DNA from: Psammoneis japonica
Lineage: Eukaryota
Assembly: GCA_008632985.1 (NCBI GenBank)
Contig: QPGO01000047.1
Span: 1-64,000, forward strand
DNA length: 64,000 nt
Direction of reading: 5' to 3'
Position 1 is the first letter of the stretch, and each line of letters opens with the position of its first letter. Of this stretch, positions 1-55,620 are shown piece by piece. The notes beneath the pieces were generated by a model. That model was not told the origin of the DNA and made no database searches. It saw only the letters and a list, made by a program, of their open reading frames with translations. The position numbers and the translations under genes are program-made.

Positions 1-999
1 CTGGCTGTTGGTGCCTCCCATGCCAGTTTTCTTCATGCACCTGTTGTGACAGTGTGTGGAGTGATTCTGACATTTGCACATTCCTGTTTCCACCCAGGAC
101 AAAATGCTTGCCCTCAACATGACAAGGCACAAAGCAGTCAATGCACACTTGACTTTGGATGCTGTTGCTCTGGTCACCCCTCATCTCTGCTTGTCCTGAA
201 AGCTGATCTAAAGTGTGATGGACATTTGCACAACTTTAATCTCAGGGCCCAATTGGGGGGGGGACACTGGTGCCACACACTTGGGTGCAATGAGCGGCCT
301 TGCCACAGGAAAGCCTGGCTTGCCATTCAACCCGCAGCAGACTCCAAGAAGGCTTGGTTTCACAGGGAATGCACTTTGTTGGAACCTTTCTTCAGCAGCT
401 TTGTGGGGTCACACTCTCTGCACTTGTCCTTGTGAACATAAAGAAAAGACTGTTGAATGGATTTGGTGCCTTTTTGATTGAATGCCAAGAAGCTGGAGGA
501 ACCAACCTCAGCATGGCAAAGTGAACTGGAGTGAAAGGCATCCTCAACATGCCTTGACACCTTCTTCATGTTCAAAAGCCACTCTCAAGCAAGGCGCCCA
601 ATGCATCTTGGAAACAAATGCAGCCCATGTCATCCCCGGCAACATCACCACAATGCTGGCTGCATCTCCAAAGCCACGTTGCTGCTGTTGAATCCTGCAC
701 CTGTGCAGCTGTTGTCAAGGCACGCATCTTGTCCAACCACCTCAGCATCCACTGCTTGTCCTTTGCCCATGTCACCAGCACCAGCATCACCACAATCTGT
801 GCCTTCTCCACCATCATCTGTGGTGCCTTGAACTGCAGCATCATGTTGACACCCTTCATCCTTTTCACACAGTCAAATCTGTCTTGTTTGGCAGAACCAT
901 CCACTCAGGCAGCACCTTGATGATTGCTCATGTCTCCTTCCATCATTTCTGCAATGTTGTCACAGTGCTTTCAAACCCGTGATGTGGCAACATGCCTCC

Positions 1000-1830
1000 A
1001 GCAAGAACGCAAAAATGCCACTCCAGAAAGTGAGAGATGACCTGTTTTGCATGGATCAAATTGTTCTGGAGCTGGCAGGCTGAAAGGAGCAGGGCAAATT
1101 CAACAAGAAGGCACCACTGTGACAACAGTCCATGACACATGTGACAGTCATGCCATTGATTTGGCAAAGTGGTTGAAAAGAGAAAAGTCTTGAACATGGC
1201 CAGATCTCTTGTGATCAAGTGGAGTCAACGTTGCATCCACATCCTTGTCTCTGTTCTTAAAAGCGTTTCCCCAAGGCATGAGCAATCCGCCATGGCCAGA
1301 ACAATGAAAGCAGACCAAATCTCCAGGAGAGCCATGTTTGACCAGTTTTCAAAGCCCTGCAATCACAGTTTGTCTTGTGGGAAAGAGGTGATTTCCATCA
1401 TTCACAATTGCCAAAATGTTGTGTTCTGGGTGCCCCTGTTTCTCAACCAGATGGTTTTTCATGTTGAGAACATTGTTGTGACAGCTGCTCAATTGTCCAC
1501 TCTGTTGGAGACAATTGACACCACCAGCGGTGCCCTCTGGGTGCCAAAAAGGGTGTCTCCTTGACATCCAATGGCCTTGAGGATTTGACATTGGCCATCT
1601 TTTGCCAGCTCTTGTCGGAGCAAGAGTGGCAGCTGTTGAAGGGTCAAGTTTTTGTTGTTGTGTTTGCATCAAATGTTGAGAAGAGCACTTGTGCAAGCCA
1701 AGCCCGCATGCCCCACTGCATCAGGAAGGTTGACCATCACGTTTGACAAGCTCGTGCTTGTTTGTTCTCTGTGATGGCCAGAAATCATTCCTGCTTCTGC
1801 TGGAGTGCATTCTGCTGCTTGATGATCAAA
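1000..1830 (-). pseudogene. Type III metacaspase (C14 peptidase, p10 domain N-terminal to p20) pseudogene
   Basis: Minus-strand fragments in order: PAEAGMISG..EQTS..SNV..LPDAVGHAGLACTSALLNI (p10), SSRPLDV, GTQRAPLxGVNC..GQLSSCHNNV, GDLVCFHCSGHG (catalytic His; canonical FHYSGHG) and VTCVMDCCHSG (catalytic Cys). Stops and frameshifts are present. Confidence 0.85.
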
Positions 1831-2387
1831 ACCAGACAGTGGTGGTGATGATGATTGCGAAGGATGAGCAACATCATTGCTGCTGTTTTCTTGGTTGTGG
1901 CGGTGGTTCAAGAGGTGTGTTGCCACAACATGTTCAGTGCAACAGCACAGAAGAGAAGTGAGAAGATTCCAGATTTTGGATTTTTCCAAAGAAAATGACA
2001 GCATCTGACCACAGCTCCAACCTGTGGCTCATGAGTTTTCATCTTCTTGCTCATCTGCATGACACAAGGAAAAAGCAAAATTGCCACTTCTGACATGGAA
2101 AGGCATCTCATTTGATGCACTTTTGTCAGCACAGCTCCCCACTCTCTCTGACTCTCAATGATGCATGGACATTTTAGTGAACTGCCTTGCAAGTGACTCC
2201 AGCAGACAATGCCGAGGATGGCTGTGCTTGGGTTGTCAACGTTTTGTTGCCATGGCAGAGCCGCACAAATCACACCAGCAAAGGTGCTCAAGGAGGAGCA
2301 ACTTTTGGCTGCAAAACAGAGCAACATGCAAAAACCAGCTTTTGGTCAGAGTTTCTCCACTCCACCACCATTTTGCAAGTCAACACA

Positions 2388-2389
<2 letters not shown>

Positions 2390-2445
<56 letters not shown>
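2390..2445 (+). repeat. (AG)n microsatellite
   Basis: Perfect AG dinucleotide run of ~56 nt. Confidence 0.98.
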
Positions 2446-2448
<3 letters not shown>

Positions 2449-2508
2449 ACACACAACATCACAGGTGTTTTCATGGCTGGAAAGAACCTTCATGTGTGGC
2501 AAACAAGA

Positions 2509-2618
2509 AGGGGTGAGTGGACAGCAATGGTGGTGAGCCCATGTGAATGGTGTTGTGAAGTCAAGGGGTGAGTGGTCAGCAATGGTGGTGGGCTCATGTG
2601 AGTGGTGCATTGAAGTCA
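2509..2618 (+). repeat. Imperfect ~55-bp tandem duplication
   Basis: ggggtgagtggacagcaatggtggtgagcccatgtgaatgg... is followed by ggggtgagtggtcagcaatggtggtgggctcatgtgagtgg... Confidence 0.85.
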
Positions 2619-3564
2619 TTTTTTCTGAAAGTTGGCTGGAGAGTGTGTGCACTGAGCAGTTTGAGGTTCCACTCACTGCAGGGTCCAGCAGAAAGATGTG
2701 TTTTTTTTGCAATTTGAGTTGCTTGAGCTCATTTGAGTCAATGAATGCATTGAAAATGAATGAAATGTTGCCTGCATTGGAGACACACCTTGGTGCACAC
2801 CTGGGCATGGTTCTTTGTGGAAAGTTTCTTGTGCAGACTTCACATGTGCTGCTTTGATTTTCACCTCCTGTTTCAAATGCTTGCTTTCCATCTCATCCAG
2901 CTGCTGAAAGCCACCCTCCTGTCACACAGTCTTCACACCTGTCACAGCTGGCAAAAAGCCACATCTCTCACACCTCAGGGTTTTCCACCAACACATGTGA
3001 ACAAATCCAAAGACCAGAGCAATCAAAAGGCATTGCACTCAATGCAATGTCTCTCACACCAATCACATCCATGTGTTGTTGTGCTCAAGAAGTGACACTT
3101 CAAATGCTGGAGTGCAAAACATGACCCTGAAAGAAAGAGAGAATTTGGTGCACTGGCACATTTGCTGGTCCAGCAACAAGTCGAAGGAGCATTCTTTCAG
3201 GCAGGAGACACAAAGCTGGAGTTTCAGAGCTTCTTGTTCAATCTTTGTCTGGCAAATGTTGCAATGGGCTTCAGAGATTGTTCAATGCTGCTTTGGGCCA
3301 TGGAGCCCAACACCCGTGTTTTGCAAAAATCAAATGGGCCCACCACACAGAGTGCTCAGCTAAAGGAAATGGAGTGGAAGGCCACACTGTCATGCTGTTC
3401 TTGGCCAGAGTTTCACCCACCACCTTTAAAAATGAACAGAAAAAGGCTCTGGATCACAATCATCTGCAAGCAACTTGTGGACATCCAGCCAGAACATGCT
3501 GTTGTCCAAAGACCCCACGCACTCTTGTCAGAGTGCTGCTGAACCTGCTGGCACACATGCATGA

Positions 3565-3755
3565 TGCATGCATGACAATGACTGGATTCAGGCCAGTGAA
3601 CTTGAGCAATGCAAAGCACAAGAGTTGATGCCTTGAACTCTTGTGAAAGTGCTGCCAACCTGCCAATGCACATGGCATGTGTGCCTTGAACAGTGGCATG
3701 ACAATGGCTGGATTTGGGCCAGCCAAATTGGGCAATGCAAAGCACAGGAGCTGGC
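3565..3755 (+). repeat. Degenerate direct repeat (~60-bp core, two copies ~125 bp apart)
   Basis: gcatgacaatgactggattcaggccagtgaacttgagcaatgcaaagcacaagagttg versus gcatgacaatggctggatttgggccagccaaattgggcaatgcaaagcacaggagctgg. Confidence 0.7.
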
Positions 3756-5469
3756 ACAGCTTGAGAATGACAATGTGCAGCAACGAACATCTTGGAGGTC
3801 AAACCAGGAATGGCAAAGAACTGCTCCTTGGTGCTTGGGTGAGCAGAGCCAGTGGGACCAGACCAGGCAAAGGAACTGCACCTGCCACAGATTTGTTGTC
3901 ATCTGAATCTCCATTGTTGGGGTTGTGAGCTGTTGCCAAAGCACATGATCATTGTCCTGCAAGCCGGCGTCAGAAGCGTCAGTCTCAACTGGGGGCTTGT
4001 CAGACAACATTCTTTGCAATGGCTCAAATGCAAAACCTTTTGATGCAGTGTGCAGTGAGGTTTTGTTGCAAACTGAAGTTCTCGTTGCACACTGAAGTCA
4101 GCAGCAGAGTGGTGCCAACAAGCAGCTGCAAGAAAGACATTCAAAGTGTGCACACTGCCATCTGGGCAAAGCAAAAGAAGTGGTCTAAGACAGAGCAGCC
4201 AGCAGTGTGTTTGCCCCAGCATGTCAAGATGAGAAAGGTGACACAGCGCACATGCCAGCAATGGCTTTGGTGCTGGCACTTGTTGGGCCAAGAAAGGCAG
4301 CACATGCTGCATGACCCAAAATGGGGCAGTCAGACAGGGCAGCTTTGCTTGGCCAAGAGGAGGCTAACCCAGTTTCTTGTGGTGACAGAGAGATTTGTTG
4401 GGCTCAAGTTGTGCTGCCTTTTGGGTGTGAGATGCTGCTGGTCCAAGAAGGGCCTGGGCTCTGATGCAGAGGTTGCATTGAAATGTGATCAAAAAAGGCA
4501 GTTTTTGGAAGATGTTGGAGACAAGAGCAGGGACATAAATTTGTGTCCCTGGACAAGAGGCCAATGTCACTGGAATGACTGAACATCTCTGGGTGAAGAA
4601 GGGCATTGCGAGTGGCAGTCCAGCGGCGTTGTTCATGCCACACCAGCATTGGAAAAGTTTTGCAGTCTGTTTTGTGGGACTGGTGGTGCAGCCTTTTTGT
4701 TGCCAGCGCACATCAGCTCCAAGATTTCCACATGTTCAAGTTGTGCAGGCATTCTCACAGGTCAAAGGTTTTGGTGGCTCCACAATTTTGAACAATGGTG
4801 GTGCTGCCAACTGACCCAAGTCAGTGTTGGTGATGGAACCTTGCAGATTTTTGCAAGTTGAAAGAGAGTTGGTTGCAACCTTTGGAAATTGCACACATGC
4901 CGTGCAGCAGGGATTTGGTTGCTTTTTCTGTGTGGCAGTGGCCAGAGGGCACACAGCATGGCTTGGCAGCTCATGGTGTCACAGCAGCAGTGCAGCAGCA
5001 GGATGATGCCACCTGCCAAATGACCTGCAGCATGGTGTGTGGCAACTCAGTGCAAGTGGTTGGCTGGAGCAGCAAGCTCATGCACTTGCACAGGACGGGC
5101 ATCTGATGGGGCCCCACACAGATCACAAAAACCATCCAGTGCAACATGAAGTGCGCTGACAGTGAGCCTCCTGCCATTTGGAGAAAGGGCCTCTGGCACC
5201 AGGCAAAGTGACAGTGAGTGATCACCATTCTCCCAGCAGGAGCTTGTGACAACCTTCAGCGGCAACAAGTTTGCTGGTGTGGGATGGTCCTCAAAAAGCA
5301 TCTCAATGAGACATGCACAGCACCATGGGGCAAGTCGCAGTGTCACAGAGGAAGAGATGATGGAAACTGGCAGTCCAAGAAAAAGAAACAGAAATCTCGG
5401 GGATCAACGACGGTCGAGTCCAGCGGTCTTCATGAGTCGAGAGATTGTTTCTGAAAAGCAAGCGCAGTC

Positions 5470-6810
5470 AAAAGCAATCAAAACTGTTCCAAAACAAGAC
5501 ATGGCACGCAGTGACCAACAACTGAACATCTAGAGAGGTGCTTTGCTTTGATTTCTTTTCCGCAACGCTCTGGTTCCTCATTTTGCTCATGAGCCGAATG
5601 TCTTCTTCATCATTGAGCTTTGATTTCAGCATGCCAGCAACAAGAGTGACGTGCCTTGGCTTTCGCCATTTTTCATCCACTCCCGTTGCTCATGACACAC
5701 TCTCGTCCTCGTCCACATCAATTTTCTCGTTTAACTTCAATGGGAATTTGTTTGCAGCTTCAAAATCATTGCGCTTCTTCATCTCGCGCTCCTTCCAGAC
5801 TCCAAAAATTGTAACAAGTTTGTCTGTTGTGAACTCTGGGTTGTTCCAGACACAAACGCGGAGTTGGGTGCAGGTGCAGGGCACAACAATGTAGACATGC
5901 CACGCCGCTGCAAACATCTTGGCCATCAGGAGGACCGGCTGTTCTGTCCACATCACTCTGGGATCGAAGAAACTGCAACACCATCAAAAAGGCAAACAAA
6001 ACAACAAGAGAGCATTCAGATGAAAAGCACTTGCAGTTGTGCATGCTGCCCTTGACAACAGCCAAACTCATGTGCTTTGGGAAGCAGCTCAAATGCACCA
6101 CGATGGAGCACATCAATGACAACTGCACCAGCTGAACACAAGCCCATGATGTGGACGAGGCTGTGACAAAAGCCTGTGCGGCATTTGGTGCAGTGGCCAT
6201 GGTCCAAAATCCCATTCCAAGTGCAACCGCTTCTGGGAGTGGACAGAAAAAGAAAACATTGAGGGCAACCAATGCATGCAGTTTGTCCTGTGCACCTGCC
6301 ATTCGTTTGATTTCGCACTCCTCTTCTGTCCATTGGCCCTGTTGGAGAGCATGGCGGACCATGTTGCGACACTCGTCTCTGGCAAGTTTTTTCGCCAAGG
6401 GAGCAAAGGCGATGCCAAACACACCAAAAAAACACAGGAGTGCTTGAAGTTGACTCAAAATTGGCCATGACTTTGCCCCCGGCGATGATGTTCCCCAATC
6501 GGCTCCGTGCATGATGATTGTGCCGGCAGAGAGGAGACACCAAAAAAGCTTCCCGCGTGTGTGGTGCTGTCATCGTGAACCATCTCAGATGCCGTGTTGG
6601 GCCACCCCCTGAATGTGTTTCGCATGCATTCCGCCATTTTTTCAGCGCTGCTGTCGTCGTCCATCAAGTCAAAGAAGCCAGCTTTCTTCACAATGGAGCG
6701 GCATTTTGGTGAATCCTTGCAGGTGTCATGGCACCACGCTGCACCCCAAAGCGCAATTGCCGATGCAATGTAAACAGCAACAGAGGACGATGTGGCATCT
6801 GCAGTCATGG
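5470..6810 (-). pseudogene. Decayed multi-pass membrane-protein gene of unknown family (CpG partly retained, TpA lost)
   Basis: Overlapping minus ORFs 6455-6808, 5766-6512, 5690-5956 and 5468-5680 join into a protein-like sequence with hydrophobic segments and a charged C-terminus. Frameshifted. Confidence 0.4.
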
Positions 6811-6979
6811 CGATGTTTTTGTGCTGTGTCGTTTGCGACAGGGTGTGTGAAGAAACATGAGAGCGGCAGCGCAGCGCGGATCATCGTCGCGACGATGGCA
6901 GAATTGAAATTTCCGGGATTATTTTTGATCAGTTCAACTGTGCAAGAACGGACGGAAAATCTGGAAAATGCTGTGCATG

Positions 6980-8600
6980 TGTGATGGATGCACGGATGAA
7001 GACTGTTTGTGCATGTGATCTCTTTTGGAAGTGCCTGGCCTTGCACACAGTGCAGTCATGGAAGATTGAGTGCACATCGAGTTGGCTCTTCTTGAGACCC
7101 ACAGCATCCCCCCATTTGCAGCTGCTGCTGTGCTTCTTGAGGGTCATGGCATGTTGGCAGTCTTGAGGGACTTTGCACCCATGCTTGTGGCAAGGCACAG
7201 CACAGAAAGACCACAGCTTGGCTTGGCTGGCCATGCAGAACGCCCCCTTCTGTCATCTTGTGACAGTGTGGAAATGCTTCCAGCCCTTGGTGTCAAGAAG
7301 GCCGCTCTTGTTGCATGTGCAGAAGGTGCAGGTGATGGGATTTTCCTCGTGACAACAGCCAGAGGCTTGGCTGTGATCTTCCCACCACTCTCCCACTTGA
7401 GCATGATGTTGCAGCTTGAACCTTTCCAAATGGGGTCATGACACTTCAGAAAACCTTCATGCAACAAGATGCCACAGAACTTCCCCAGATGGTGGTGTCA
7501 TCATCATCTTCTTCATGTTCTTTGCCATTGTTGACCAAGCAATTGAACTTGGCAAGTTCCAGGTTGTCAACAACTTTGCTGTTGCAGTCTTTGACAGCCT
7601 TCACAGCATGAGCTTGGCGGCGGTTCTTTCCATCCTCTTGTGGCTTCATGAGCAAGGTGCATCTGATGATGGTGTCTCCACAGGATTGAAAACTGGCATC
7701 TTGTGCACCCTGATCTCCCCGTGTGATGAGCCACATTTTGGAGATGTTGTGACAAGATTTGAAAATGGGTGAAGCAGGCTGCTCATCAGGAGGATCAAGG
7801 TGCAAGTTGTGAGCCAAAAGATTGTGGGCAGCAGGATGCATGTCAGACCTGTGCAGAGTTTTCTGGGTGTCATCAGAGATGGAATCTTGAAGGTCATCTG
7901 GTTGCCCACATGTTTGGCGACACCAATGAAATGACCACACAGCTTGTGGCATTCAAACAGCCAGCCAGAGTTGCCAAGGTGGCAGTGGACAGGTTCTCAC
8001 CAACATGAAAGTGCAAGAGAGGGCTGATGTCAAGCAGAGCTGCTCAGAATGTTCACGGGAGTGTGCCAGTGCAGCTTTGCAGGTGCGGCGGCTCAGAAGA
8101 AAGAAGCACATGCACACAAGGGCAAGCAGCCATGTGGAGCCATGGCGACATTGGCCATGTTTTTTGCTGTCTGATGGCAGTGTTCAGCAAAGTTCTGGCA
8201 CAGCTGTTGGCGCTCACTCTGCTGGCTGGAGACAAACAGGGCAGGTGTGTGGGATCCCAACAACCATGTTGCTGATCTTGACATCAGCTTGACTGCTGGC
8301 AAGCTTGGAGGGAGTGCCGCAATTGTTGGCATTGTCTTCAAGAGTGTCGACAAACTCATTGTGATGGTTTTGGTGCCAGCACACATGCCCATGAGACAAG
8401 AGATTCTGCACCCACAAAGAGCTGGGTGCTGATGCAGCTAAAGTCTTTAGCAGGTTCCACTCATGGTGGGCATTGGGGGCCAGGTCAGGAGATTTGCAAG
8501 CACACAGTTTTGAGGGTGGCCACCTGACACACCCCCAACACCAAATCATCAGCAGGAGCCACTTTTCAGCACATCAAAGCCCATCCCATCATTTTGACAT
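6980..8600 (-). mobile_element. Ty1/copia (CoDi-like) LTR retrotransposon pol relic (integrase to pre-RT region)
   Basis: EFVDTLEDN..GTPSKLASSQADVKIS and QQLCQNFAEH (integrase). HEGFL..DPIWKGSSCNIMLKWESG.ITAKPL matches the diatom copia WKGSxYNVxxEWExGEIT motif. HKHGCKVPQDCQHAM..KWGDA matches YKYGYEVPRDYxHA. Confidence 0.8.
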
Positions 8601-10617
8601 GCTTGCTCCTCAATGAATCTCTTCTGCAATTTCTTGTCATTGTTGCTTAACTTCATTCATTTGGGTTTCAAGCTTGTTGAATGAGCCCAGGATTGAGCAC
8701 AACAAAATGTCAGAAACAAGTTTCCAACAAGCAGGTGGAGGAAGGCAACTGGTGCTGCATGTGCATGGTGCTGTGGCAGGAGTGCTGCTTTGTGGTCAAA
8801 GCAGCTTGCACACCCTGGTTTTCTTGCACCACCATCTCATCCTGAATTTGGCTGCACATCATTGAGTGCAATCTTTTTTCAAAGCTGGTGCCAGCATCAG
8901 AATTTTTTTCCAAGTTTGCCAATGAGCGCACACTTGCAGCAACGGAGCTGCCCCCTCTCATCTCTTCCAAACAAGCAGGGCTTTTGCTTCAACCTCTTGG
9001 ACTTTCAAGCCCAGCACAAACAGCTTCAATGCATCGTGTCATCAAAAGCAGCAAGCTGTTGTTGCAGCATCTGGCTGATGACTTTGTGCTGTTTGAGCGG
9101 TGCAGCCAAATTTGGAGGACATCACAGGGGTGAGATGCAGAGAGAGCCAATGCTTGCTTTGCCAGTACAAAAACACTCTAGCTGTTGTTGACAGCATGCA
9201 TGAGTTCAAAATGAAGGCAATGAAGATGAGGCTCACAACAGCCTCTGACAAACACATTCTCAGAGCTGCTGGCGAGTGCACTTCAGGTGGGGTGCAAGGG
9301 GGAAGCTCAGACCCACCCTGAACACTGCATCACAAATGAGTGTGAAGCATGCGATGTTGCACCGGCAAGTGATGATTGCAAACGGGACACTCATCATCCA
9401 TCATGAGTGTGGGGATTGTTGACAAAATCTGCTTCCTGACTTCATTGAATCGCAAATCGATCAAATTTTCTGTGTGTCTGGCCGTCGGTCACTTAGCCTG
9501 ATTCATTCAGTCATGCGTTGTCAATAATTATTGATTCACGCATTCGTGACAGTGGGCACTGGTATGAATGGACGTTGACAAGACAGAAAAGCGAGACATA
9601 CAACGGACGAAAGCCCAAGACGCTTCTAAACATCGGACAAAAACGGGAGTGTCGCCCTCTAGACTACTGCCTCTCACTCCGATCAGCCTGAGCAACGGCG
9701 ATGGCCGCTGGAGAAACATGAAGCCAGAGTTTCCCGAAACCGCGAGGATGTTGTGGAACATAGCAGAAGACTAACAAAAGTATGGTTGCGCAGAGTGCTT
9801 ACAATGGTGCCATGACCTGCACGTACTCATGCTTCAAACATGCGCTCTGACAGTGTGTAAATAGAGGCTCCAAAAAATGCAAGAAAGCTTTGTGCTCAAA
9901 CCCACTCTAGTCTCTCTCTAGCTAGGATGCTCAGTTTCCAGTCAGTTGAAAATCGTAGCTTATGTAACAAAGGCGTTCTTCACCATGTTGAGTGCAGCGT
10001 GGGATCTGCCGAACCGGCGCAAATACAGTAGGCTTACTATGATCGCCATGATGTGCCGACACAGCAACGTGGAAAAGAGGTTCGCGGTACACTAGATTCT
10101 CGTTCGAGTAGTGTCAGAAGGTTCATCTTCGTCCCTTGACTGATGGATCCCTTTGATCCCGTGTTATTCCTGCCACCAATAAGTGAGGCCCATCAGGATA
10201 TCTCTGCCGATAAATGATGAATAGCCTCAAACTTTTTACTACATGCGAGATATTTCTTAGGGCTCGAATTATTTATGCTTGGTGATATTTATGAAGTATT
10301 TATGTCACGTAGACTCTACGGTTTCTTTGGTACTTAAGCAACACTTATTGCGAATCCCCTAAATAACGAAAACATCGTTTGTTATTCATCGATTTTGATT
10401 GGTTGGTTTTGAAATTTTCAACGTCACAAGTCGAAACGGATTACCGGATCGAATCTGTTGGTTTTGTCGCTCGGGATCAGCGCATGTGGCCATTTTTCTT
10501 GTTTTCCTGCTTCTTCTCTTTCCATCCGCCATCACCAAGTTGTAGCTAGATAAGCCCTCACTTCAATTCTTATAAGGAGAACTTCACATCATACGCAGCA
10601 TCAAAGAATTCTCGATC

Positions 10618-39796: not shown

Positions 39797-41722
39797 TCAC
39801 AGCCACGCCCTCTCCCACTCTCGTTCATACACGTAGACACCACGGACCTTCCAGTATGCCTCTTTTAGCTCATCTGGATCACTCTTGATGTACGAATTGC
39901 AAGTTTTAAACTTTTTTGCAATCTTGGGACAGTCCAATTGAAACCGATTGCCAGCCACGCTTCCGCAAAAAGCCAGATTAAACACCAATCGCATGTTTCG
40001 AAAATGGTGAGAAGGACAATCGGTTTCGTCACCTGCGCAAGAACGAAACGGGTGGAGTGTTGTAAGTCAGTGTGGAAATCCAAATTATTGAAAACATTCT
40101 CTGCTGCTGTCAGTGTCGCTCACCAATAGCAAAATATCCATAGGGCAAGTCCCACAAATCTGGGTCAGGCATGATGCGTTGTGTTTCATCCGGAGCACTG
40201 GCTGTCCGAATGGAGTCTTTTAGATTGTTGGGAACATTGCTGTGTGGAGAGAATACCCACGTACGGATCCGTCGAAAAATAGGGTCCCACTCCAACACGT
40301 ACACACCTCCTCCCTTTTCATTAAGTGGACCGCCCAGCGTACCGTTCTGAGATTCAACAGCGACACATCCCTGATTCAGCCATTGCTTGGGATTGTACAC
40401 AAAGCAATCGGTGGCATACCGCATGGTCATATCCGGCACCCCCGTCTTGGCATCTGGAATTCCGACCGCCTGACAATATGCACGAACTGGTGAGAATAAC
40501 AATAGCGAGAATAATAATTATCTTTCGCTACAAAAGAGCCGTACCGTATCCCATGTTCCAGTCTTGACGCCATACTCGGGAACATCGTCCATGGAGCAAC
40601 CCCGTGTGGAATGGAGTGCCGTTTTGGCGACGGATTGATAATTGACTCCCTCGACTATATCAATTTCACCGTTGATGGGCCAGTTGGCTTCGTCCGTAAG
40701 CCAAAATGCGGGCCACACACCTTGTTTCGAAAAAGAATCAAGAGCAACAAAAGGGTGGCACGCACAGAAATAATGAGTACGCATGCAATGCGGACAGCCT
40801 TTTAACAGCACGACCCTAGAACACAACAATCAACCAGATTGTACACTCGAAACTCACCACAACCGGCAGGCATGTGCCTTAAATCAATGACAAACAAACC
40901 TCGATTGAAGCGGCGCTTTCCTTCCAATCGAATTGAGTTTCGTGGACCGTTTGCCGTTGGAGACGATCCCATGTAAACAAATGGTTCTGTGGCATTTCCT
41001 TGACTCTTGTCATAAACATTTTCCGTGTCTTGTTCGAGTGTGACATTGAGAATGCCGAGTTGACTGGCCTCTGGCATTCCAACGTACGTGAGGTACCCAT
41101 TGGATCCAGCCGAGTCGCGTCCTTCATAAAAATTGTAAAAGGAAAAGAAGTCAATCCCTTCCTGTCGTTCTACCAATTGGTATGGCCCAATAGGTTGTCG
41201 TGGTGGGCCGACAAATTGTACACTCAAAAACGTCAACACCACAACCACCAGCAACGCCACACCCGCCAGAGAAACAAGCGCAATCAGCTTCTTTTTTGCC
41301 TTTTCTTCCTTTTCCAATTCTTCTGCTGCTTCTTCTTCTTCGTCTACTGCTTCCATGGCGAGCGCATCCGACATTAAATGAAATGATTTTCGGATAATTC
41401 GTTCTTCTTCTTCGGGATGACCCGCCGGTACTTGCATTAATCGCATCGAGAGTCGATCGGCTTCTCGCGCATGACGATCAAACATGGCTGCCTTTTGTTC
41501 CAACGTCATGGTATCCTCGTCGTCTTCATCATCGTCCATGACTGGAGTTGATACATGATCAAAGGGAGGCTTTCCCTCCATGGCGGCATAGTATCTTGAC
41601 GAATACATGTTATCAAACAGCGGAGTTGATTCATCCTGTTGGTTTGCATCATCGTCGTGTTGTTGCGAGAGAAAACCGTACGGCTTTTTGCCCTTTTTCT
41701 GCTCTTCTGGAATATCATCCAT
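39797..41722 (-). CDS. Membrane-anchored GH16 beta-glucanase/transglycosylase (fungal Lam16-like), 4 exons
   Basis: TM segment LIALVSLAGVALLVVVVLTFL; RNSIRL; HMPAGCG|VWPAFW; catalytic GEIDIVEG; GGGVYVLEW; VFNLAFCG. Confidence 0.9.
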
Positions 41723-46200: not shown

Positions 46201-46895
46201 TTGCGTGTCTCAACTGCCCGGCAAGTCCACCAGCGGTTTTGCCGTTAGACAGAAAAGGAATTTTCGTGTTGACAATACGAGGGTTATCAACCTGGACATT
46301 CGTTATAGAAATATTCCCTCCTTCGCCAAATCCAATGAGTCCTCCAGCATATTGGTCAAATGCTTTCACAGTTGGATTTTCTACAATGATGTTGTGAATT
46401 TTCGCATTGCCGGTGACATGCCCCGCCACCGCACCAACGTGCCCCAAGCCGATCTGAAGACGATGTTAACCGAACGCCAGAGAGTGAGAAACCTTATCCA
46501 AGCATTTCAGGCAAACAAAAAGGATGACCTACCACCGTAGGGCCCCTAAGAATCAGGTTGCTGATCTGAGCATTGTCTCCAACGGATCCAAACAGACCTA
46601 CGTGATTGAAATATTGGCGATCAATGTTCAAATTGCGAATACCTCTCCCATTCCCGTTAAAGATTCCTGTGAACTGGTTATCGATCTTCCCGATCGGTTC
46701 AAAGCTCTCACCACCAGGCATACGGATGTTGTTGATCAAAATATAGCTTTTCCAAAGTCCGTTGCTCGTGACCTTCTCCAAGTCCTTGTAATTGTGGATT
46801 TCGCAAGGGTCGGTATTCTGCTTCCCGCAGCCAGTCTTGAATTTTGCCATTGCAGGCATCACCATGGAGCTGATTAGCGCGAGGAAGTATCCCAT
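43292..46895 (-). CDS. Large secreted GLUG-motif/PKD-like repeat protein; intron 46454-46532
   Basis: Signal peptide; two modules GCG..T(D/N)PCEI...Y.L.N.I...F.PI...TG.F.G.G..I..L...VGLF; many (V/A)GGL(V/I)G GLUG motifs; three PKD-like GPY.G..G.PI.L...WT.DN..C.F....PxLxC units. GT-AG intron joins PTV|IGLGHVG in frame. Confidence 0.85.
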
Positions 46896-47699
46896 GGCAA
46901 AAAAATTCAAATTGCAGTTGCTTGTCATCTCACTCTATAGTTTTCTTGTCTTGCGTCTGTATCTGATCTGCAGATAAAGAAGAAAGGATTGGAGTTAGAA
47001 CCCGGGTAAGACCGATCTATGGAGATAAGAAATTGTGATTCTAACACCCATTCTCTTTTCTGTTGTGAAACCAAATTGCAGCAGAATAAGTAATCGGTAG
47101 CAACGCTTGTCGCAGCAACGAAAGTGAAACGCGTGAACGTCCAACGCGCCTCTTTCCGTCCAATCGTCTGAACGCGACAATGGCCCAAGCATTGACAAAG
47201 AAGTAAAGGCATGCTCAGTGCCGAAAGCTCAATAATTTAACACGAAAGAAGAGGTAACCATTCGCTTCTGCCGAAATCATGTGTCACAGCTGTCGCTGTC
47301 CCACTCGCCTTCAGGTTCTTTTTTTGTGTGTGTGCGCGGTGTTCATTTTGTGTTGTCTGCCGATGCGATTGATTCTCGTTTGTGTAACAGGGCAGTACTC
47401 GTTCGCTCTCTGATGGTGTTCTTTTTGGGACGCACTTAACAAAAGCTGTCACGGGGCTATTAAAAATGATAAAATCTACAGCGAGTAAACGTCATCGACA
47501 TTCTAAACACTTATTGTGCGTAGATTGTGGTATCGATTCCACTGAAAAGAGAGAGAAAAATCGAACCCGCCTTTTCCCATTGTTCCCTTGCATCGCATCC
47601 AATGTTTTAAATGCTTGTGTCATCATCACGCCATCTTGCCTCCTGCGAACGACCCACATCTGATCCAATGCCTCCACTTCCAAGTTCACCCCCATGCAC

Positions 47700-50600
47700 A
47701 CTGACTGAGTGAGGCACCAATTCAAGAGAGAGACACTCCATCGTGCGCTCTGGCGCATCTGCCACCTCGGCACACACCACACGCTCATCCTCCAGGCAAC
47801 AATGCTGGCATGTCACACCAGTTGTTGCACTGCCAGCAATGGCATTGACTTTGTTGGCAAGAGTGATGTGTCCCATGGAGATCTTGTTGTTGTTTTGAGT
47901 TTGTGTCTGGGGTGTCACACAGCATCTGCAGCCACATCTCCCACACAGCACTGCAGCGCTGGAGCCAAGAAGAGCCCAAAGAGGCTTGCTCACCAAGATT
48001 GAGCCCTGCCATCTTGTTGGCAGCACCAGAGCCATGCCACAGTTGCAGTGATCACTTTGAATGAGACAGGAGACATGCAACAGAGAGCCCTCTTCTTGGG
48101 GCAAGCTCAGCCCAAACCTGGTCAAACTGCAAGATTCAGCCAGTTTTGCAAAGAGCAAAGAAGCCCCCAACCAGCGTGCATGCACTGGCAGTGTGCAAGG
48201 CTGAGATTTGGCTCAAGTGCAGCCTCTTCCTGAAGGGAGAGGCTTGCAAGGACATTGCTGCACATGAGTTTTTTGCTCTTCCCTGGCATTCCAGCCACCA
48301 TGCCAGTGCCACCTGTTGAGTTTGCCAGGCTTCCAACTGCACCCATCCAGCAAAACAGTGCTTCCACAGCCTGGCCAGTTAGAGGGCCTGAAACTCTCAA
48401 ATGACTTTGTCAATGCCTTGTCCCACAGGAGCTTCAACAGCTTTTTCTGCCAGTGGATCCACTGCCTCCAACTCCTGTCAACAGCAAACTCCTGGTGGCA
48501 CTGGCCCCAAAATGAGCACAAACCCTTTCCCCAGACTCAGGTGCTCCAACACATCAGCTCCCAACCCCTGTGCACTGGACTGTCATGGTTGCACTCACAG
48601 CAATGTAAAAGATCCATCACCTGCTCTGTCAAGTCCGTGGCTGAGCTCCTCTGGTGCTGCAGCAACAGTGGCAAAACAGTGCCATCAGACCACCATGCCA
48701 CCCCAAGTGAGCAATTCCTCCTCAACAGGCCATGCCCTGGCAACAACTGTGCCCCCTGCCACCACCTGCATTGGCCATTGACCTGCTTTTTTGAAGACAT
48801 CAATGACCTTGCAGTGTGCCTCTGAGCTCATCTTCACCAGCTGCTCTGACCTGGCACTGTGGTGCTGCAAGGCAGCAATGATCCATCAGTGCTTGTGCCA
48901 CAGCAGGATGCCATGTGGTCAGTTGGTCAGACATTTGCTGTGCAATGGGGTCCAAGGATCAGGCCCTCCTTGCACCCCAATCAACATGGACTTCCATGAT
49001 GCCCAGCAAATCCATCACTTCAAGAAACAGGATTTGCCCCAACTGCTGCATCAACCCCCACAGCTGTCATCCTGTGGATCATGCATGCAGCCATGCTTGG
49101 CTTGTGCACCAGGAGCCCAAAAGCCACCACCAATGTGTGTGTTGGCCTGGCTTCATTTGACTGTGTTGGCAAATTTTGAGACAACTCTTTTGAGTGCCAT
49201 TGCGCCAATGTGCCATTTGCCATCAGCAAGCCTGTGAACATCAGTTTGTGGTGTGGAGTCAGAACACGCCCCACATTTCACCAGGTGCATTGCAAAAAAA
49301 GCATCAAAATGAGATGACATTTGAGTGGTGCCAGTGCTGGATTGAAGTTTCAATTTGAGTCACATTTAACCACTGACTGGAAAACCCAATGTCACAAGGA
49401 CTCCAGCAATGCACAATCACATGCAGGGTTTGCGTGAGATGTCACAATCACTGTGTTGCCATTTTCTTGACAAAATCTGCAGGAAACAAACACTCAAGGA
49501 TGCTCCAAACAACTGCTGTGTGCAGACTGCAGTGCACACCTGTTGCACTCTTGTTGCAAGATGTTGAAGCATGCCTGCATGCCAGTTTGGAGTTGCTTGA
49601 TGGCTGGGCCTCAAGGCTGCCCATTGTTTCATTGCATCTCATCCAATGATGCAAAAATGCCTGTGCCGCCATCTCACCCCCCATGCTCCTCCTGTGAGTG
49701 AGCCCACTGTGTGCATGTGCTCAGGTCCAATGCCTCTGCCTTCAAGTTCACCCACCAGCAGTGCACCAACTGAGGCACCCAGCAATGCTCTTCATTGTCA
49801 ACAGCCCATTTTTGTTTCCTCCTCCTGCCTTTGTGCTTGTGGGCAAGCCCACCTTTTTGCCAGTGCATGCTCCAATGAGCACTTTTTCAAATGGACCCAC
49901 CACATCTCATTTGGGCAAGCCAATGTGAGTGCACATCCTCTCAAATTGTCTGTCAAAGCTTCTGACAAAGTTTCCTCCAAAGGAGGGTTTGGCAATCTTC
50001 CAGGTGTGCCTCTGTGCCAGCTCTGTTGCTGACCAGAAATCTCACCACAAACCTTGGGCATGCTGTTGATGCAAGCAGATGTGCTGCTGCCTCATGCTGC
50101 TCCTGACACTGATTCAGCAGTGCAGGCGCAACCAACATGTCAACATTTCTCTTGTGGCTGTGCACTTGAACCACTCTGCTGGTGCCTGCACTTTCATTGA
50201 GAGATGTTGTGGACAGTGCTTCAACAGCAGCAATCTGACTTTTTGTGCACAAGCTGACAAGATGTGACAATTTCATGCAGGAACTCAAGTTTTTCCTCAG
50301 GTGGCATGCTCAACTCCAGTGGGCAACATTGGCTTTGTCAGCAAGAGTGGCATTTTCTCCCCTGGAGATCTTGCTGTCGTGTCTGAGAAAAACTGTTGTT
50401 CTTGGCCCAGCTGTGTGTGTGCTGCTGCACATCCGCAGTGCATTTGCCAGACCTTGCATCTTGAAGACTGCGGTGTTTTCAAAAAAGACAAGAGATTGGA
50501 GCACAGAGAGCACTCTTGGTGGGCTCAGCCCAAGCTGGGTTGAGCCACAAACACTCCAGTCAACAATGATGGTTGCTGTGTTTGGGGCCAAGCTTGAGAC

Positions 50601-50700
50601 AAAACTTCAAAGCTGGCTGACTTTGGCACTCTGCAAATGTGAAATTGAAGCCATCACTGCAAAACTTGCACCAGTTGTCATGTGATGCAAAATCTGCACA
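47700..50700 (-). mobile_element. Non-LTR retrotransposon (LINE) 3' relic: post-RT, RNase H-like and C-terminal regions
   Basis: APNT..IV..VCGSTQLG (cf. IVYGSxxLGG), LNQC, and RGWELMC...FWGQCHQEF...WIHWQKKLLKLLWD (cf. IGW..L..G..S..W...Q..Y...W..KLI.LLW of diatom LINEs). Heavily decayed. Confidence 0.5.
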
Positions 50701-51429
50701 ACTTGATGTTTCATGTGATGAAGCTCGTCATGACACATCAGGCACAGCAACAACATCTGCTAAAAATGCCATTTGGTGGCAGCTCAAAAACTCCTGCAAC
50801 AGCAAGGTGTGCACCAAGGAAATCAAAAAATCTGTTGTGATGCCACAGGTGAAATGTCACATGTCAATTCTTCACCAACACACAAACACCATTAGCCACA
50901 TTCTGACACCTGCTGTGTCAAATCCAGCAAAAACAAAAACAAAAAGAGCTTCAAGTGCAAAGTGCAAATTTCTGGCAGAGAAGAGATTTGTGGTGTGGGT
51001 GGTTGGTCTGACAACAGTGCAGCTGATGAAGTGAGACATCTGGGGACATCTGCAGTTTGTCATCGATGTCCAACATGTGCGCCGAAGACATGCTGCTGTT
51101 CCAAAACTTTCTTGCAGAGTGCAGAGTGATGGCTTCACTCTGAAAACTCTCTGGCTTTGCTGACACAAATGAGTGCAAAAAAATGAGATTTTTTGCTTTT
51201 CAAAGGGACCCACAGATTGCAGAATTGGGGAGAGGGGGGGGGGGGGGGGGCAGCAAGTCATCATCATGCAGTTGGGAGTGAGCCAGGTTCTTTTCCCCCT
51301 CTGAGCCAGCACCCTCTTGAGTTTGCATGCACCTGCCTGCATTGAAAGCCAACTTCCTGTTTGTGGTTGCTTTGTGGCTGCTCTCTGTTGTTTTGCTTGC
51401 TGCAGCATGTTTGTTGCCCCAGACATGTG

Positions 51430-51610
51430 CCAATGTTTCTCAGTGCTGCAGTCAAGTTGAGTCAATTCATTGGAGAGCCAACATGAATTCAGAGTGCAGC
51501 AACAGCTGCAGTCCACAACAACCAAGCAAAACAGCAACACAACTTCCCTCTTTGCAAGAAGCATTTTTTGAACATGCACGGTCTCAAGGAAGTCCAACAT
51601 CTGCTCAGGG
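51430..51610 (+). pseudogene. Decayed paralogous fragment of the 42076-43236 gene
   Basis: tccacaacaaccaagcaaaacagcaacacaacttccctctttgcaagaagc...ggtctcaagg-aagtccaacat aligns to 42978-43066. Confidence 0.9.
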
Positions 51611-51799
51611 ACATTCCCAAATCTGCCATCTTGAGACTGCTGCATTTGTGAGACTGGCCAGACTGGACTGGCCCTGGTGATGCAGTGCTTGAGCAATTTT
51701 GTAAAAAACCAATTGTGATTGTTTCTGCAAGATCTGCACAAGTGGTTGCAGTTGTTTCACAAGAACCTGACATGACATCAAGATGACACCCCATGCAGT

Positions 51800-54670
51800 G
51801 CCGGCCATTGGGATTCCATCTCAGGATTCCCTTTCAAATGCGTTCACTCGTGGCATTTGCTGCAACCACACACAAGAATGACCACAACAACAACAGCACC
51901 ATTGTTGTCAGCCAACTCTACATTGCATCACAACAACAAGTCCAAGTTGCTGAGAGCCCCTGTTGCCAATGCCACAGCCACACTTGGGATGGCTGCAATG
52001 GGGGCTTCCAATCAGCTCACCTCTGACACTTTTGCTCAGCAGTCAAGATTGGTGAGAGACATGCATGATGACTTGGGCGACAAAGATGACAACACAAAGA
52101 AAGCAATGAAGGTGCAAGTTTCAATTAAAACCTTGTCACGCCTGCATTTGAATTTCTGCCTCTGACCCTGAGTTTCAACCAAACTTTTTGCAGCAGACAT
52201 GAGAGCCAGTTCTGTGCAATGTGTGGCCACAAGCACGCCACATTGGGAGACACCAGGTGCTTGGTTGATGAGCAAAAAGCCTTCATTTGCCTGTTTTGTT
52301 GAGCCTTTTGCCCACAAAAGAAATGGGGCAGGGCAAAGAAGGGAGAGACCAGTCAGGCCAATCTTTGATTCTGAGCTCTTGTTTGAAATGGTGACAGCCA
52401 GCAATCCCTTGACTGCAGCGGACATTCCAAATGAGACTCAATTGCTTGACCACACAGAACCTGGTGTTGGCAAACCCAACAAGCTCAGCCAGTGGCATGT
52501 GGTCAACCAGGCTTGTGCATCCCTTCGATGACTGTTTGTTTTTCAGCTTGAAATGCATGGCAGAGATCCTGCTTTGTGTCACTCCGTCATGAAAATTCCA
52601 GCCACATCAAATGTCTCAAGTGTCTTGTGAAGTCCCCAAAACCACAAGAGAAATGGAGACAGGTGAGTTTTGGCCAAAATGTGTGGCACATTTCTGTTTA
52701 AAACAGCCAAGCTGTGCTGAGTTGTCCACCTCAAACATGGTCAGGTTTCTGGCAATGTGTTGCCCCACCTGGCCCATGAGCATTTCCCAGAGTTGGAGGA
52801 GGCTTGCTGGGGACATTCTTCTGGGACATTGCTCAATGGAACAGCTGCTTTGTGCAACCATTTCTTCATGCTGTGCACAAAACAAGCCATTTCCCACTGG
52901 GAGTCTCTCCTCAAGGCTCTGACCTGAGCGATCTTTGCAGTTTTGGTTGTCGGGCAAGGAAAGAGGAACAGGCCCAGCTGTTGCTCATCATGAAGATGTT
53001 TGCTGGCAAAACCAATGGTGAAAGCATGTGGTTTGGCCATGTCATGCAACACAGAGATGTGAGAATAAACTCCATTGGTGGATTGGGTCTTTGTCTGCTC
53101 GGTGCAACCATCCAACCACTTCAATCAAACAAACTGTTGCTGCAATCATTTTGAATGCAAGATGCTTTGAGATCAGCAAAGAATGGGAGAAGATTGACCT
53201 AAAAAGGAAGGAAACATGGTGGAACATCAAGCTCCTTGTGGACATGCAGAAGGCTTGCACATCTTCTGGAGACAGTGCCAAGTCACCTGCTGACATGCAG
53301 CTCATGTCTCCCTTGTCTTGTGTTGCTTGGTTTGATCATTTGAAGGAACGGCTTGACCTGTTCATCAACTGCAGTTTGCACTTTGGACATGTTGGAGGCA
53401 CAGTCAAGTTAGAATCAGAGGAGTTGGAGTCTTCTTGTCTCATCAAAGCTTTTGAAAATTGAAACCCAAGTGTGTTTGATGCCCTTGAAGGTGAGTCGCA
53501 GCACTTGTGGTGTGGCCTGTTTTTCTTTTAATTAAACTCACATTTTGTTTCAATTGAACAATGTGAGGCAATGAGGGTTGCAGCTGGCTTTGCAAAGGAG
53601 CCTGGAACCTGATGAATTGCAGAAGGAGATCTTTCCTTGGCTTGAAGGCATGGCAGAAGGAGTGTCTTGCAGGGAGCACCCCACATCACATGCTGCCTTT
53701 GTGGAGCTCTTGAGACCATTGCGTGTTGTCATCCTCCAAGATGTGGCTGCTTTGATGCTGCTCGGCTGCACCCACACCCTGCTCAAGCTTGCTGTTTTCA
53801 TGTCAGCTGGATTTTTGTCATTCAAGGAAGAAATGAAGGTTTGCTTGGAAAAGCCACCCCCTTGCCCTGATGCTGGACAAATCTGTGGGGTGTCAGAGCA
53901 GACTCAAAACTTGCACCAGGACAACTGATGCAGCCACCAGCAGCTGTTGTCTGCAGTTGATGGGTCCTTTGAATGCAACAGAAACACAATGAACAATTTT
54001 GCCTTTGCCACTGGAAACTCACACAGCCAGAAATGAGTTCAACAACTTGACCCTGGAGCAGTCTCCACTGACTGGGCAGCAAACACACCAGCAATTGGTG
54101 AGTGCTGTGCATCATCTTGCTGTTTCAATCAAATGTCATTTTAACCAAACATTTGCTGACCAAATTGTGCATTCAATTGAAACCATTTTCAGCCACAGGC
54201 ATGATGCCAGCAACAGGCATGCAGTCTCCCAGTCCCAGCTTGAGTGGCTTTTGACCCCCCAAGTGGAAAGACACAGATCTTGCCAAGATGCACAACTGCT
54301 TCAAGGGAAATGCTCCTCCTTTCACTGCCCGCAATGAAATGAGGCATTTGGAGGACAGCAGGAAACCATGGCATTCAGCATGGGAAGACAAAGACAAAAA
54401 TGCTCTCCATCATTGGAAGCAGCTGATGAAAATTGTGGACAAAGTGCTGGTTGAAAACTCTGCACACCTCCAAGTTCTGGTCATTGCCAAGTTGAACTCA
54501 TTTTGCATTGCAGATTGCAACAAGGTGTTGACAACCACATTGAAGAAGTTCCCTGAACAACATTGGCACTTTGCGGGCCATTTCCAGCTGGCAGCAGTGC
54601 AAATCAAGGAAAAATGGCCAACAACCAAGGGGAAGTGGCCAACATTTGGCTGCAACAAAAACACAAGTTA
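51800..54670 (+). mobile_element. Crypton-type tyrosine-recombinase DNA transposon relic (NDC10_II-like)
   Basis: ESLLKA.LSDL, GKTNG..WFGHVMQHRDV...GGLGLCLL..RF, WWNIKLL, LHFGH (HxxR with CGT>CAT), ELQKEIFPWL, and FVELL..LRVVILQDVA. Confidence 0.7.
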
Positions 54671-55229
54671 AAGGGTTTCATCGAAGCTCACTCTTGGTGC
54701 AATTCTTGGTGCATGTTCTTGGAGCATTGCACACTTTCCAACTTGGTGCCTCTTTTTACATTTCAACAAAACCCATTTGTGACATTTTAAATGAAGCCAA
54801 CTTAAATTTTGGTTGAAACATGATCACAACACATTGCACATGTTTGAACTCGATGCTGCTCTCCTTCAGAATGTCCGCCACTTTGCATTGGATTTGGCCA
54901 TCTGGCTTGCCTTTGCTGTCCCAACTGCAGTCATTGAGAACATTGTGCTTTGTGTGAGCAAACCATGTGGTGCAGTTTTTGTTGAAGCCAATGGCTGTGG
55001 CACTCTTCTTTGCAACAAATGAGCCACACGTCTTGTCAAATTTGGTGCGGTCCTCCTCAGGGACTTGGAAACACAGGATGGGGGGGGGGCACTTCTGATG
55101 TGCTGGAATCAAATGTGACCCTCACATTCTGCAGAAGGTTGGGCAGTGCATTGCTGCTCTTCTTCACCTTGCAACCTTCCTCCCAGGTGACCATGGGCCA
55201 CTCAATGCTGTCCAGTTTTTGAAACCCAC

Positions 55230-55620
55230 AAGTGGATTTTGGGGGGGTTGCTGTTGAAGGTCTTGGCTGCATCGCTGCCTCTGGCCTTGACAGTGCCCTT
55301 TTTGGCCTTCTCACCAGCACTGCCACCCTTGGTGCTGCTGTCCTTGCTGCTGCTGTCTTTGTCAGTGGCCTTCCTGGGCTTGGCGGCACTGCCACCCTTG
55401 GCGCTGCTTTCCTTGGCAACACTTTCCTTGGCAACACCCTTCTTGGTCTTGGGGCTGCCCTTGCCACCCTTTTTGGCCTTTGCTGCACTTTTCCTGCCAC
55501 CCTTGGCAACACTGTCGGCCTTGGCACCACTGCCCTTGGCACTGTCAGTGTCCTTGGCAGTGCCCTTCTTAGCCTTGTGGTGCGCAGCAGTGTGGGTGTG
55601 TTCTTCCTTGGCAATGTGGC
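55230..55620 (-). other. Lys/Ala/Gly/Ser-rich low-complexity coding-like repeat (AKGG/KAKKG), relic or gene
   Basis: KAKKGTAKDTDSAKGSGAKADSVAKGGRKSAAKAKKGGKG... is open for ~130 codons and built of gccaagg repeats. Confidence 0.55.

Follow-up and report, generated by a model that had tools for sequence, protein, structure and literature searches.

The 64,000-nucleotide window analysed here (positions 1 to 64,000 of the forward strand of contig QPGO01000047.1, assembly GCA_008632985.1, from the diatom Psammoneis japonica) consists of an ordinary diatom gene region (9491-47609, the core) between two domains in which the dinucleotides TA and CG are strongly depleted (1-9490, extending past the window start, and 47610-64000, extending past the window end; together the flanks). 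The limits of the flanks (25,881 bp) were drawn from lists of TA and CG positions, and the core (38,119 bp, 1494 TA) serves as an internal control, its dinucleotides being ordinary with observed/expected (o/e) ratios of 0.58 for TA, 0.98 for CG and 1.16 for CA. Open reading frames (ORFs) of the core encode Pfam domains TPR, RSE1/DDB1/CPSF_A propellers (three, separated by short gaps), DAGAT, RabGAP-TBC, Oxidored_FMN, VWA, PI-PLC-X and Glug, and of the 120 matches listed for the DDB1-like protein, the 12 that bear an organism name are all diatoms (43-53% identity). Rfam and tRNA scans of the whole window gave zero matches. Both edges of the core are abrupt: on the left, the stretch 9180-9493 is devoid of TA, which becomes dense at 9494, while on the right TA is dense to 47608 and next occurs only at 48380, so that the TA-free domains directly adjoin normal sequence, as do the delimited regions of hypermutation in the chlorarachniophyte Bigelowiella natans. 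At both boundaries the TA-free domain runs approximately 170-220 bp closer to the genes than the CG-poor domain, leaving edge strips with CG close to normal and without TA at 9273-9490 (8 CG, o/e 0.59; 0 TA) and 47610-47782 (7 CG, o/e 0.60; 0 TA).

The flanks together contain 70 TA (o/e 0.04) and 269 CG (o/e 0.17). The left domain (21 TA) has TA o/e of 0.03-0.06, CG o/e of 0.12-0.13 outside a CG-retaining island, and TG/CA o/e of 1.6-2.1; the right domain (49 TA) has TA o/e of 0.04 and CG o/e of 0.09-0.10 outside an island of its own. Per kb, flank and core contain 2.7 versus 39.2 TA, 10.4 versus 56.8 CG, and 233.4 versus 144.2 CA+TG (flank CA/TG o/e 1.87); thus the loss of 82.9 TA+CG per kb is balanced by a gain of 89.2 CA+TG per kb, and the total of pyrimidine-purine (YR) steps is conserved (246.5 per kb in the flanks, 240.3 per kb in the core). 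The unchanged YR total fits transitions limited to CG and TA. In the flanks AA, AC, AG, AT, CC and GA lie at o/e 0.83-1.22. TC/GA is lower in the flanks (o/e 0.90 versus 1.11 in the core), with the trinucleotides TTC, ATC and TCC at 0.70-0.74 of their core frequency, which may be due to coding bias of the core or to some C>T change at TpC. The left TA-free domain includes a perfect (AG)28 microsatellite (2390-2445).

Loss of TA and loss of CG are separable. Two islands within the flanks retain CG, one at 5400-7000 (70 CG, o/e 0.71; 6 TA, o/e 0.06) and another at 57800-59500 (CG o/e 0.39, TA o/e 0.07) that contains the relic of a FAST/RAP gene, and because these islands and the edge strips retain CG (o/e 0.4-0.7) where TA stands at 0-0.07, a single enzyme attacking both dinucleotides is ruled out. 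The island at 5400-7000 has no Pfam hit, and its ORF 5769-6569 (minus strand) obtained a best Protein Atlas score of 0.81, which is chance level. Outside the islands, 150 CG survive in 22.4 kb, most commonly in G+C-rich surroundings; their density relative to the core is 0.30 for GCGC, 0.20 for CCGC/GCGG and 0.036 for ACGA/TCGT. The four TCG-containing classes (0.036-0.121) are on average below the other six (0.09-0.30). Better survival of CG in a G+C-rich context is the usual pattern of methyl-CpG decay, which the flanks resemble in the change of CG to TG or CA and in survival being favoured in G+C-rich contexts and islands; methylation-driven decay differs from the change in the flanks in that it leaves TpA untouched. 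The CpG decay of the flanks appears, from this pattern, to be of the cytosine-methylation kind.

A public sequencing run (X1, library type unrecorded) contains 95% of sampled words from a stretch spanning the right boundary, and its contigs, built independently, cover core and flank alike, reproducing the flank with 0-4 differences per contig; one of them (7691 bp, on 43565-51250, with 4 other letters) bridges the right boundary. X1 is possibly the source data of the window, so that an artefact of assembly or polishing is excluded and a misread base is still conceivable. It is very improbable, however, that the flanks owe their composition to a sequencing or assembly artefact by which a modified base in the TA and CG of heterochromatic DNA was misread: TA and CG are classic targets of modification, and X1 could be the same data as the window assembly, but the independent assembly reproduces the flank and joins it to normal core sequence, and the FAST/RAP gene copy in the right flank also has frame changes and an in-frame stop that are unrelated to TA. 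Misreading according to strand of origin should moreover yield paths of all CA or all TG, whereas the two are randomly mixed, with 1067 TG versus 1092 CA in the left flank and 1952 versus 1929 in the right, runs-test z of -0.66 (left) and -0.33 (right), and lag-1 autocorrelation of 0.014 and 0.005. A second run (X2) gave no contig on 48005-57342 and only traces on 57343-59343, which was not counted as silence of the flanks. None of the runs listed for this sequence is recorded as RNA, but X2, entered as 'DNA?', behaves as RNA sequenced from the same sample would, with introns skipped at 40028-40855 and 46453-46533; the core pieces of 75-137 nucleotides that its contigs omit have CT..AC ends and are thus introns of minus-strand genes.

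Sequence comparisons indicate the direction of change, as four small independent observations agree on TA>TG/CA and CG>TG/CA. The first two concern the decayed FAST/RAP gene copy (57863-59204, plus strand), which lies within the TA-free domain in the island at 57800-59500. Its ORF set (58111-59201) matches Pfam RAP (E=8.1e-13) and FAST_1 (E=1.1e-4), with 111-bp (37-residue) tandem repeats located upstream, and is considered a pseudogene because of frame shifts between repeats and an in-frame TGA at 58902. Conversion of TAY to TGY and CAY predicts replacement of tyrosine by cysteine or histidine, and in an alignment with 13 diatom-type homologs all three majority-tyrosine columns read C, C and H in the relic. 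Likewise, at the variable position of the repeat motif W-A-[Y/F]-A of the homologs, the seven units in the window have C (four), H (two) and F (one) but never Y, the codons beginning TG, CA and TT in the same proportions (4, 2 and 1). Third, a flank copy (51496-51600, plus strand) of the core segment 42957-43066, 81% identical over 111 bp, has GCAA, TTGCAA and GCAC where the core has GCGA, TCGCGA and GTAT; a tblastn search of the flanks with core ORFs found a single short paralogous piece and nothing more. Fourth, the region of 52-54 kb around an NDC10_II relic (53575-53925, plus strand; Crypton-type, tyrosine-recombinase-like; Pfam E=8.6e-8) is covered by several X1 contigs with variant letters, representing related copies elsewhere. 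Of 35 differences listed among these copies (a further 58 lie beyond the listing), 11 have CG elsewhere versus TG or CA in the window, two adjacent pairs are swaps between TG and CA, and none retains TA in another copy. TA loss is therefore complete in the copies seen, with CG loss ongoing, and looks older or faster than CG loss in this repeat. The summed contig depth on 52-54 kb (274-303, versus approximately 60) was not used as a copy number.

These observations bear on whether the flanks could have a native or selected composition, either as DNA from a virus or other genome in which TA and CG were avoided beforehand, or through selection of TTAA-type sites. Most of the flank DNA is without recognisable origin, in keeping with such a source: a stop-to-stop scan (table 11) yielded 272 ORFs (146 of at least 90 amino acids and 126 of 60-89 amino acids), among which only the NDC10_II relic and the RAP copy, two loci, scored above curated Pfam cutoffs; below these came FAST_1 and some matches that were weak or of low complexity, and the 126 shorter ORFs had no hit. 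The longest flank ORF (294 amino acids) had 0 relatives in a phmmer search of 1.84 billion representative sequences and is probably open by chance, as is expected of long ORFs in DNA so poor in stops, where TAA and TAG are absent. The content that can be assigned is one Crypton-type relic and one pseudogene of host type, with which a foreign as well as a host origin of the flank DNA would be compatible. That the composition itself was native to a foreign source or kept by selection is nevertheless hardly credible, because the host-type FAST/RAP copy is broken and has cysteine or histidine for tyrosine at conserved positions, the flank copy of the core segment departs from it precisely where CG and TA stand, the YR-step total is kept between flank and core, and the copies of the 52-54 kb repeat differ by CG versus TG/CA and by swaps of TG and CA.

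The 70 TA that persist in the flanks are not a random sample of their contexts. The first-pass annotation had described them as mostly YTAR (Y, pyrimidine; R, purine) with RTAY virtually absent, and the full count bears this out: 47 are YTAR (TTAA 22, CTAA 14, TTAG 8, CTAG 3), 22 are of the mixed classes, either RTAR (GTAA 6, GTAG 4, ATAA 3, ATAG 0; 13 in total) or YTAY (CTAC 3, CTAT 2, TTAC 2, TTAT 2; 9 in total), and the sole RTAY is a GTAC at 9166-9169, approximately 320 bp from the left boundary, ATAT, GTAT and ATAC all being 0. The 19 TA positions that had been named individually are all YTAR sites, to within 1 base. Two neighbouring survivors at 53529-53536 (TTAATTAA) exemplify the protected T-TA-A context. 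The core, in comparison, has 241 YTAR, 764 mixed and 489 RTAY. Its RTAY count is raised by a tyrosine-rich tandem repeat that contributes 67 of the 489 and in which TA o/e exceeds 1 because of tyrosine codons; this block (38301-39700) was left out for per-kb ratios, leaving 240 YTAR, 730 mixed and 422 RTAY. The repeats themselves (approximately 1.25 kb, 38366-39615, with units of 15, 39, 54 and 108 bp) are included in a long ORF (36845-39628, plus strand), where they code for a Gly-Lys-Tyr-Glu-rich peptide (GKGYEGKGYEYAK...) with no Pfam hit, several frames being open.

The flank/core ratio per kb is 0.278 for YTAR, 0.043 for the mixed classes and 0.0034 for RTAY, so the predicted order of survival, YTAR above YTAY and RTAR above RTAY, holds. 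Equal depletion over all NTAN classes (N, any base), which would have spoken against any context preference, is not what was found: the counts of 47, 22 and 1 compare with 16.2, 36.0 and 17.8 expected from the CA/TG contexts of the flanks themselves (chi-squared = 80, p = 4e-18) and with 11.3, 35.8 and 22.9 expected from core proportions (chi-squared = 139, p = 6e-31). YTAR, mixed and RTAY numbered 14, 6 and 1 in the left flank; 33, 16 and 0 in the right flank, both halves of which show the pattern; 40, 15 and 1 without the two CG-retaining islands; and 29, 11 and 1 within the range covered by the first-pass annotation. By tetramer, the density in flank relative to core is 0.72 for TTAA, 0.27 for CTAA/TTAG, 0.06 for CTAG, 0.056 for GTAA/TTAC, 0.05 for CTAC/GTAG, 0.04 for ATAA/TTAT, and about 0.002 for RTAY. 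Survival of YTAR is thus chiefly survival of TTAA and CTAA/TTAG, CTAG being approximately 94% lost, as completely as the mixed classes.

A target of the form T-A-pyrimidine had been proposed on the basis of these contexts. The part that stands is that the 3' neighbour on each strand governs persistence; the dependence is graded, however, and TAG is also heavily removed. A multiplicative model of two half-sites, one on each strand, fits the ten strand-symmetric NTAN classes, both with flank CA/TG sites as exposure (residual deviance 4.1, 6 degrees of freedom, p = 0.66; persistence factors A 1, G 0.51, C 0.19, T 0.09) and with core TA as exposure (deviance 5.3, p = 0.50; A 1, G 0.38, C 0.11, T 0.05). 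The data fit independent action of the 3' neighbour on each strand, with persistence in the order A > G > C > T. Addition of the next position (+2) improves the model greatly (twice the gain in log-likelihood is 56.7 and 58.9, 3 degrees of freedom; p = 3e-12 and 1e-12): A at +2 protects 3.5-4.5 fold, the other three bases being equivalent there. Among the 140 half-sites, A occupies +1 in 79 and +2 in 82, and 48 of the 79 TAA half-sites are TAAA, versus an expected share of 0.34 (p = 1e-6). The effect of position +2 is as strong as that of +1 and independent of it, and TAAA is the resistant half-site. It is an oriented effect, more than A+T richness, because the 352 source sites of ATAT have 0 survivors, against 22 for the 393 source sites of TTAA. 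This contrast on similar exposure also rules out spontaneous deamination dependent on breathing of the duplex.

The same counts were used to weigh whether the surviving TAs are remnants at all, or recent C>T (or G>A) products at CA/TG sites, created in a context-specific manner (by deamination of TCA to TTA, or by non-CG methylation at CAA or CAG) while removal of TA is blind to context. Back-mutation of the abundant CA and TG must generate some TAs, and 57 of the 70 survivors (81%) contain TTA or TAA. A model of creation only, in which C>T occurs at C-A-N and the 5' base can vary freely, is rejected (deviance 25.5, 6 degrees of freedom, p = 0.0003); it underpredicts TTAA (11.4 versus 22 observed) and overpredicts ATAA and GTAA (16.3 versus 8 observed for the GTAA class), and there are more source sites for RTAY (1539) than for YTAR (1395), yet the survivors number 1 and 47. 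A turnover equilibrium, modelled with context-blind creation from CA/TG and removal rates additive over the two strands, is compatible with the data (deviance 10.1, p = 0.12), fitting less well than the multiplicative survival model (deviance 4.1). Even this equilibrium requires removal rates that depend on context and are 32-fold apart (relative to creation, A 8.5, G 28, C 110 and T 271). The suggestion that survivors are simply new products therefore fails in its creation-only form and is tenable as a turnover equilibrium; creation in context with context-blind removal is improbable as an account of the spectrum. Removal must be context-dependent, in the same base order, under survival and turnover models alike.

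The sequence itself shows that TA and CG are depleted, in which direction they changed, that both strands are affected symmetrically, that context matters and that the domains end sharply. On this basis the flanks are considered, with a probability of roughly 0.7, to be diatom chromosomal DNA (decayed repeats and pseudogenes) that has been driven near completion by two separate transition processes. One would be CpG decay (CG>TG/CA); the other would be a hypermutation, restricted to domains, that turns TpA into TpG or CpA. The TpA process would act on the two strands independently at a rate set by the bases 3' of the A, removal being quickest where +1 is T or C, intermediate where it is G and slowest where it is A, and another 3.5-4.5 fold faster with any base but A at +2. 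RTAY, which presents two fast half-sites, would then be gone, and YTAR, which presents two slow ones, would persist, above all as T-T-TA-A-A. We infer that the conversion of TpA is carried out by an enzyme with a footprint of 4-5 nucleotides, for which a DNA adenine deaminase is the favoured candidate.

The deaminase remains putative because, in a duplex, an A>G change at T-A-Y and a T>C change at R-T-A amount to a single event. Thymine-directed chemistry, in which R-T-A has its T altered (oxidised, for instance, to 5-hydroxymethyluracil by an enzyme of the TET/JBP type) and the altered base then mispairs or is wrongly repaired to C, would make the context rule a 5' purine before T instead of a 3' pyrimidine after A, and the two readings predict identical results on duplex DNA, all counts here being strand-symmetric. 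In dinoflagellates, 5-hydroxymethyluracil is enriched at TpA and TpC. The only experimental precedent, in B. natans, is read by its authors, in the main text of their preprint, as adenine deamination, itself putative, and the thymine-directed alternative is considered a minority possibility, to be taken more seriously than an artefact, foreign composition or recent creation of the survivors.

The precedent comes from mutation-accumulation lines of B. natans, in which, according to the main text of the preprint, two integrated viral regions received 231 of the 302 nuclear mutations; within these regions every mutation except one was A>G or T>C, and all of these A>G and T>C changes were on TpA, at a rate of about 6e-7 per site per generation, in some lines only, the mutation rate being approximately 1000-fold over background (bioRxiv 10.64898/2026.01.13.699255). 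The genome of B. natans also has 124 clusters that are low in TpA and rich in CpA+TpG, and an ADAT2-like protein was proposed as the putative enzyme (bioRxiv 10.64898/2026.01.13.699255). The diatom flanks resemble this system in the near-exclusive change of TpA to TpG or CpA in delimited regions while the remaining genome is ordinary, and in that TpA-poor, CpA+TpG-rich clusters contain transposon-type and unannotated sequence; judged from end products, other dinucleotides in the flanks are spared, apart from CG, which is also lost, separably. They differ in several respects. B. natans is a chlorarachniophyte (Rhizaria) and P. japonica a stramenopile; mutation was measured directly in integrated viral regions of B. 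natans, whereas in the diatom it is deduced from its products; the viral region keeps 3.3% TpA, whereas the flanks are near saturation at 2.7 TA per kb; and the words trinucleotide, context, flanking, CpG and diatom do not occur in the main text of the preprint (bioRxiv 10.64898/2026.01.13.699255), which gives the target as a dinucleotide only, whereas CpG is co-depleted and positions +1 and +2 matter in the diatom. The literature searched, in which this preprint (in its main text) was the sole relevant report, contained neither joint erosion of TA and CG nor TpA hypermutation in a diatom. By its composition, the window is filed as a putative second case, here at saturation, of the Bigelowiella-type process, from a lineage not related to B. 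natans; what is new is the co-depletion of CpG by a separable process and the extended, strand-independent context rule.

Other known systems share some of these features. The RIP process of fungi (repeat-induced point mutation) is likewise a hypermutation by dinucleotide-specific transitions that works domain by domain, destroys repeats and pseudogenes and creates a sharp compositional contrast with neighbouring genes. RIP consists of C>T at CpA, however, raising TpA and lowering CpA/TpG, and is ruled out because the flanks change in exactly the opposite direction. Stretches of the flanks covered by just one X1 contig are equally TA-free, so that present-day duplication is not required, unlike RIP. 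Hyper-editing by ADAR enzymes, fixed through an RNA intermediate, would produce A>G with a preference for 5' U or T; ADAR editing gives strand-coordinated clusters and prefers a 3' G, and is ruled out by the absence of runs in the order of TG and CA and by the merely intermediate removal with G on the 3' side. DNA polymerase eta, with its WA motifs (W, A or T), also yields A>G at TA, and the first-pass annotation had proposed an excess of AA>AG as the sign of it; AA, which should erode, is spared (o/e 1.22 in the flanks versus 1.17 in the core, with AG at 1.05 versus 0.95), and this signature is ruled out. The tRNA adenosine deaminase TadA acts on an adenine after T/U (U33-A34 in tRNA), the loop of the bacterial substrate being U-A-C-G. 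Compared with this context, T-A-C(-G), the flanks agree in the 5' T and the 3' pyrimidine and differ in that a T at +1 is no less affected than a C, G is intermediate, and there is no preference for G at +2. Amphioxus ADAT2 deaminates A and C in DNA, in contexts given in the available text of that report as GAA and TCG, which differ from the TA of the flanks (PMC10354150). A Pfam scan of 21 window ORFs (16 core, 5 flank) turned up no deaminase domain.

Several points weigh against the conclusion that two transition processes, one of them an enzymatic hypermutation of TpA, have shaped the flanks. The evidence consists of end products of change, read from sequence alone, and the survivor set is 70 sites in a single window. 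The core baseline is coding DNA, in which YTAR is naturally rare, and it may differ from what the flanks were before they changed; the baseline of flank CA/TG sites keeps the ranking and shrinks the factors. The turnover equilibrium is unrejected (p = 0.12), so the survivors need not be ancestral. No comparable TA-free domain is contained in 77 metagenome loci (549,706 bp) around relatives of the RAP-domain protein, where the eight one-kb stretches with TA o/e of 0.2 or less are all 58-74% G+C. As for the candidate enzyme, ADAT2 from the one eukaryote in which it has been shown to edit DNA favours GAA for adenine, not TA, in the available text of the report (PMC10354150), and the main text of the B. 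natans preprint offers no wider context with which the footprint could be compared (bioRxiv 10.64898/2026.01.13.699255).

Two genes of the core have links to bacterial sequences. An Old Yellow Enzyme-type reductase (30298-31608, minus strand) has as organism-named relatives only oomycetes (46-53% identity) and gammaproteobacteria of the Marinomonas/Thiomicrorhabdus type (54-58%), its nearest relatives (72-77%) being marine eukaryote or metagenome sequences; on these matches the gene family may have come from bacteria. A 1051-amino acid ORF (43292-46447, minus strand) bears a GLUG motif (E=2e-17), a domain mostly known from bacterial surface proteins, and is a diatom gene with an intron (X2 joint at 46453-46533).

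Hypermutation of selected regions specifically at TpA has been reported once, in the main text of the 2026 chlorarachniophyte preprint, and the diatom case adds a second, distant lineage, one of major marine primary producers, with a saturated example. The spectrum of survivors is the first extended footprint of TpA hypermutation (+1 and +2, strand-independent and oriented), and can be compared with the de novo mutations of Bigelowiella and used for in vitro tests of candidate deaminases or thymine-modifying enzymes. Since domains without TAA and TAG stops and tyrosine codons contain long spurious ORFs, gene finders and codon-usage analyses are prone to misread them. It is conceivable, at somewhat less than even odds, that diatoms have a duplex-DNA editing enzyme, targeted to chromatin domains and shared with chlorarachniophytes, that reads a footprint of 4-5 nucleotides, acts on the A (or the T paired with it) of T-A-[T,C>G>A]-[not A] and, along with methylation-driven CpG decay, erases every TA and CG from chosen domains. 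If so, an old and widespread genome defence of eukaryotes would have been overlooked so far, and the footprint would provide a fingerprint for finding its enzyme.

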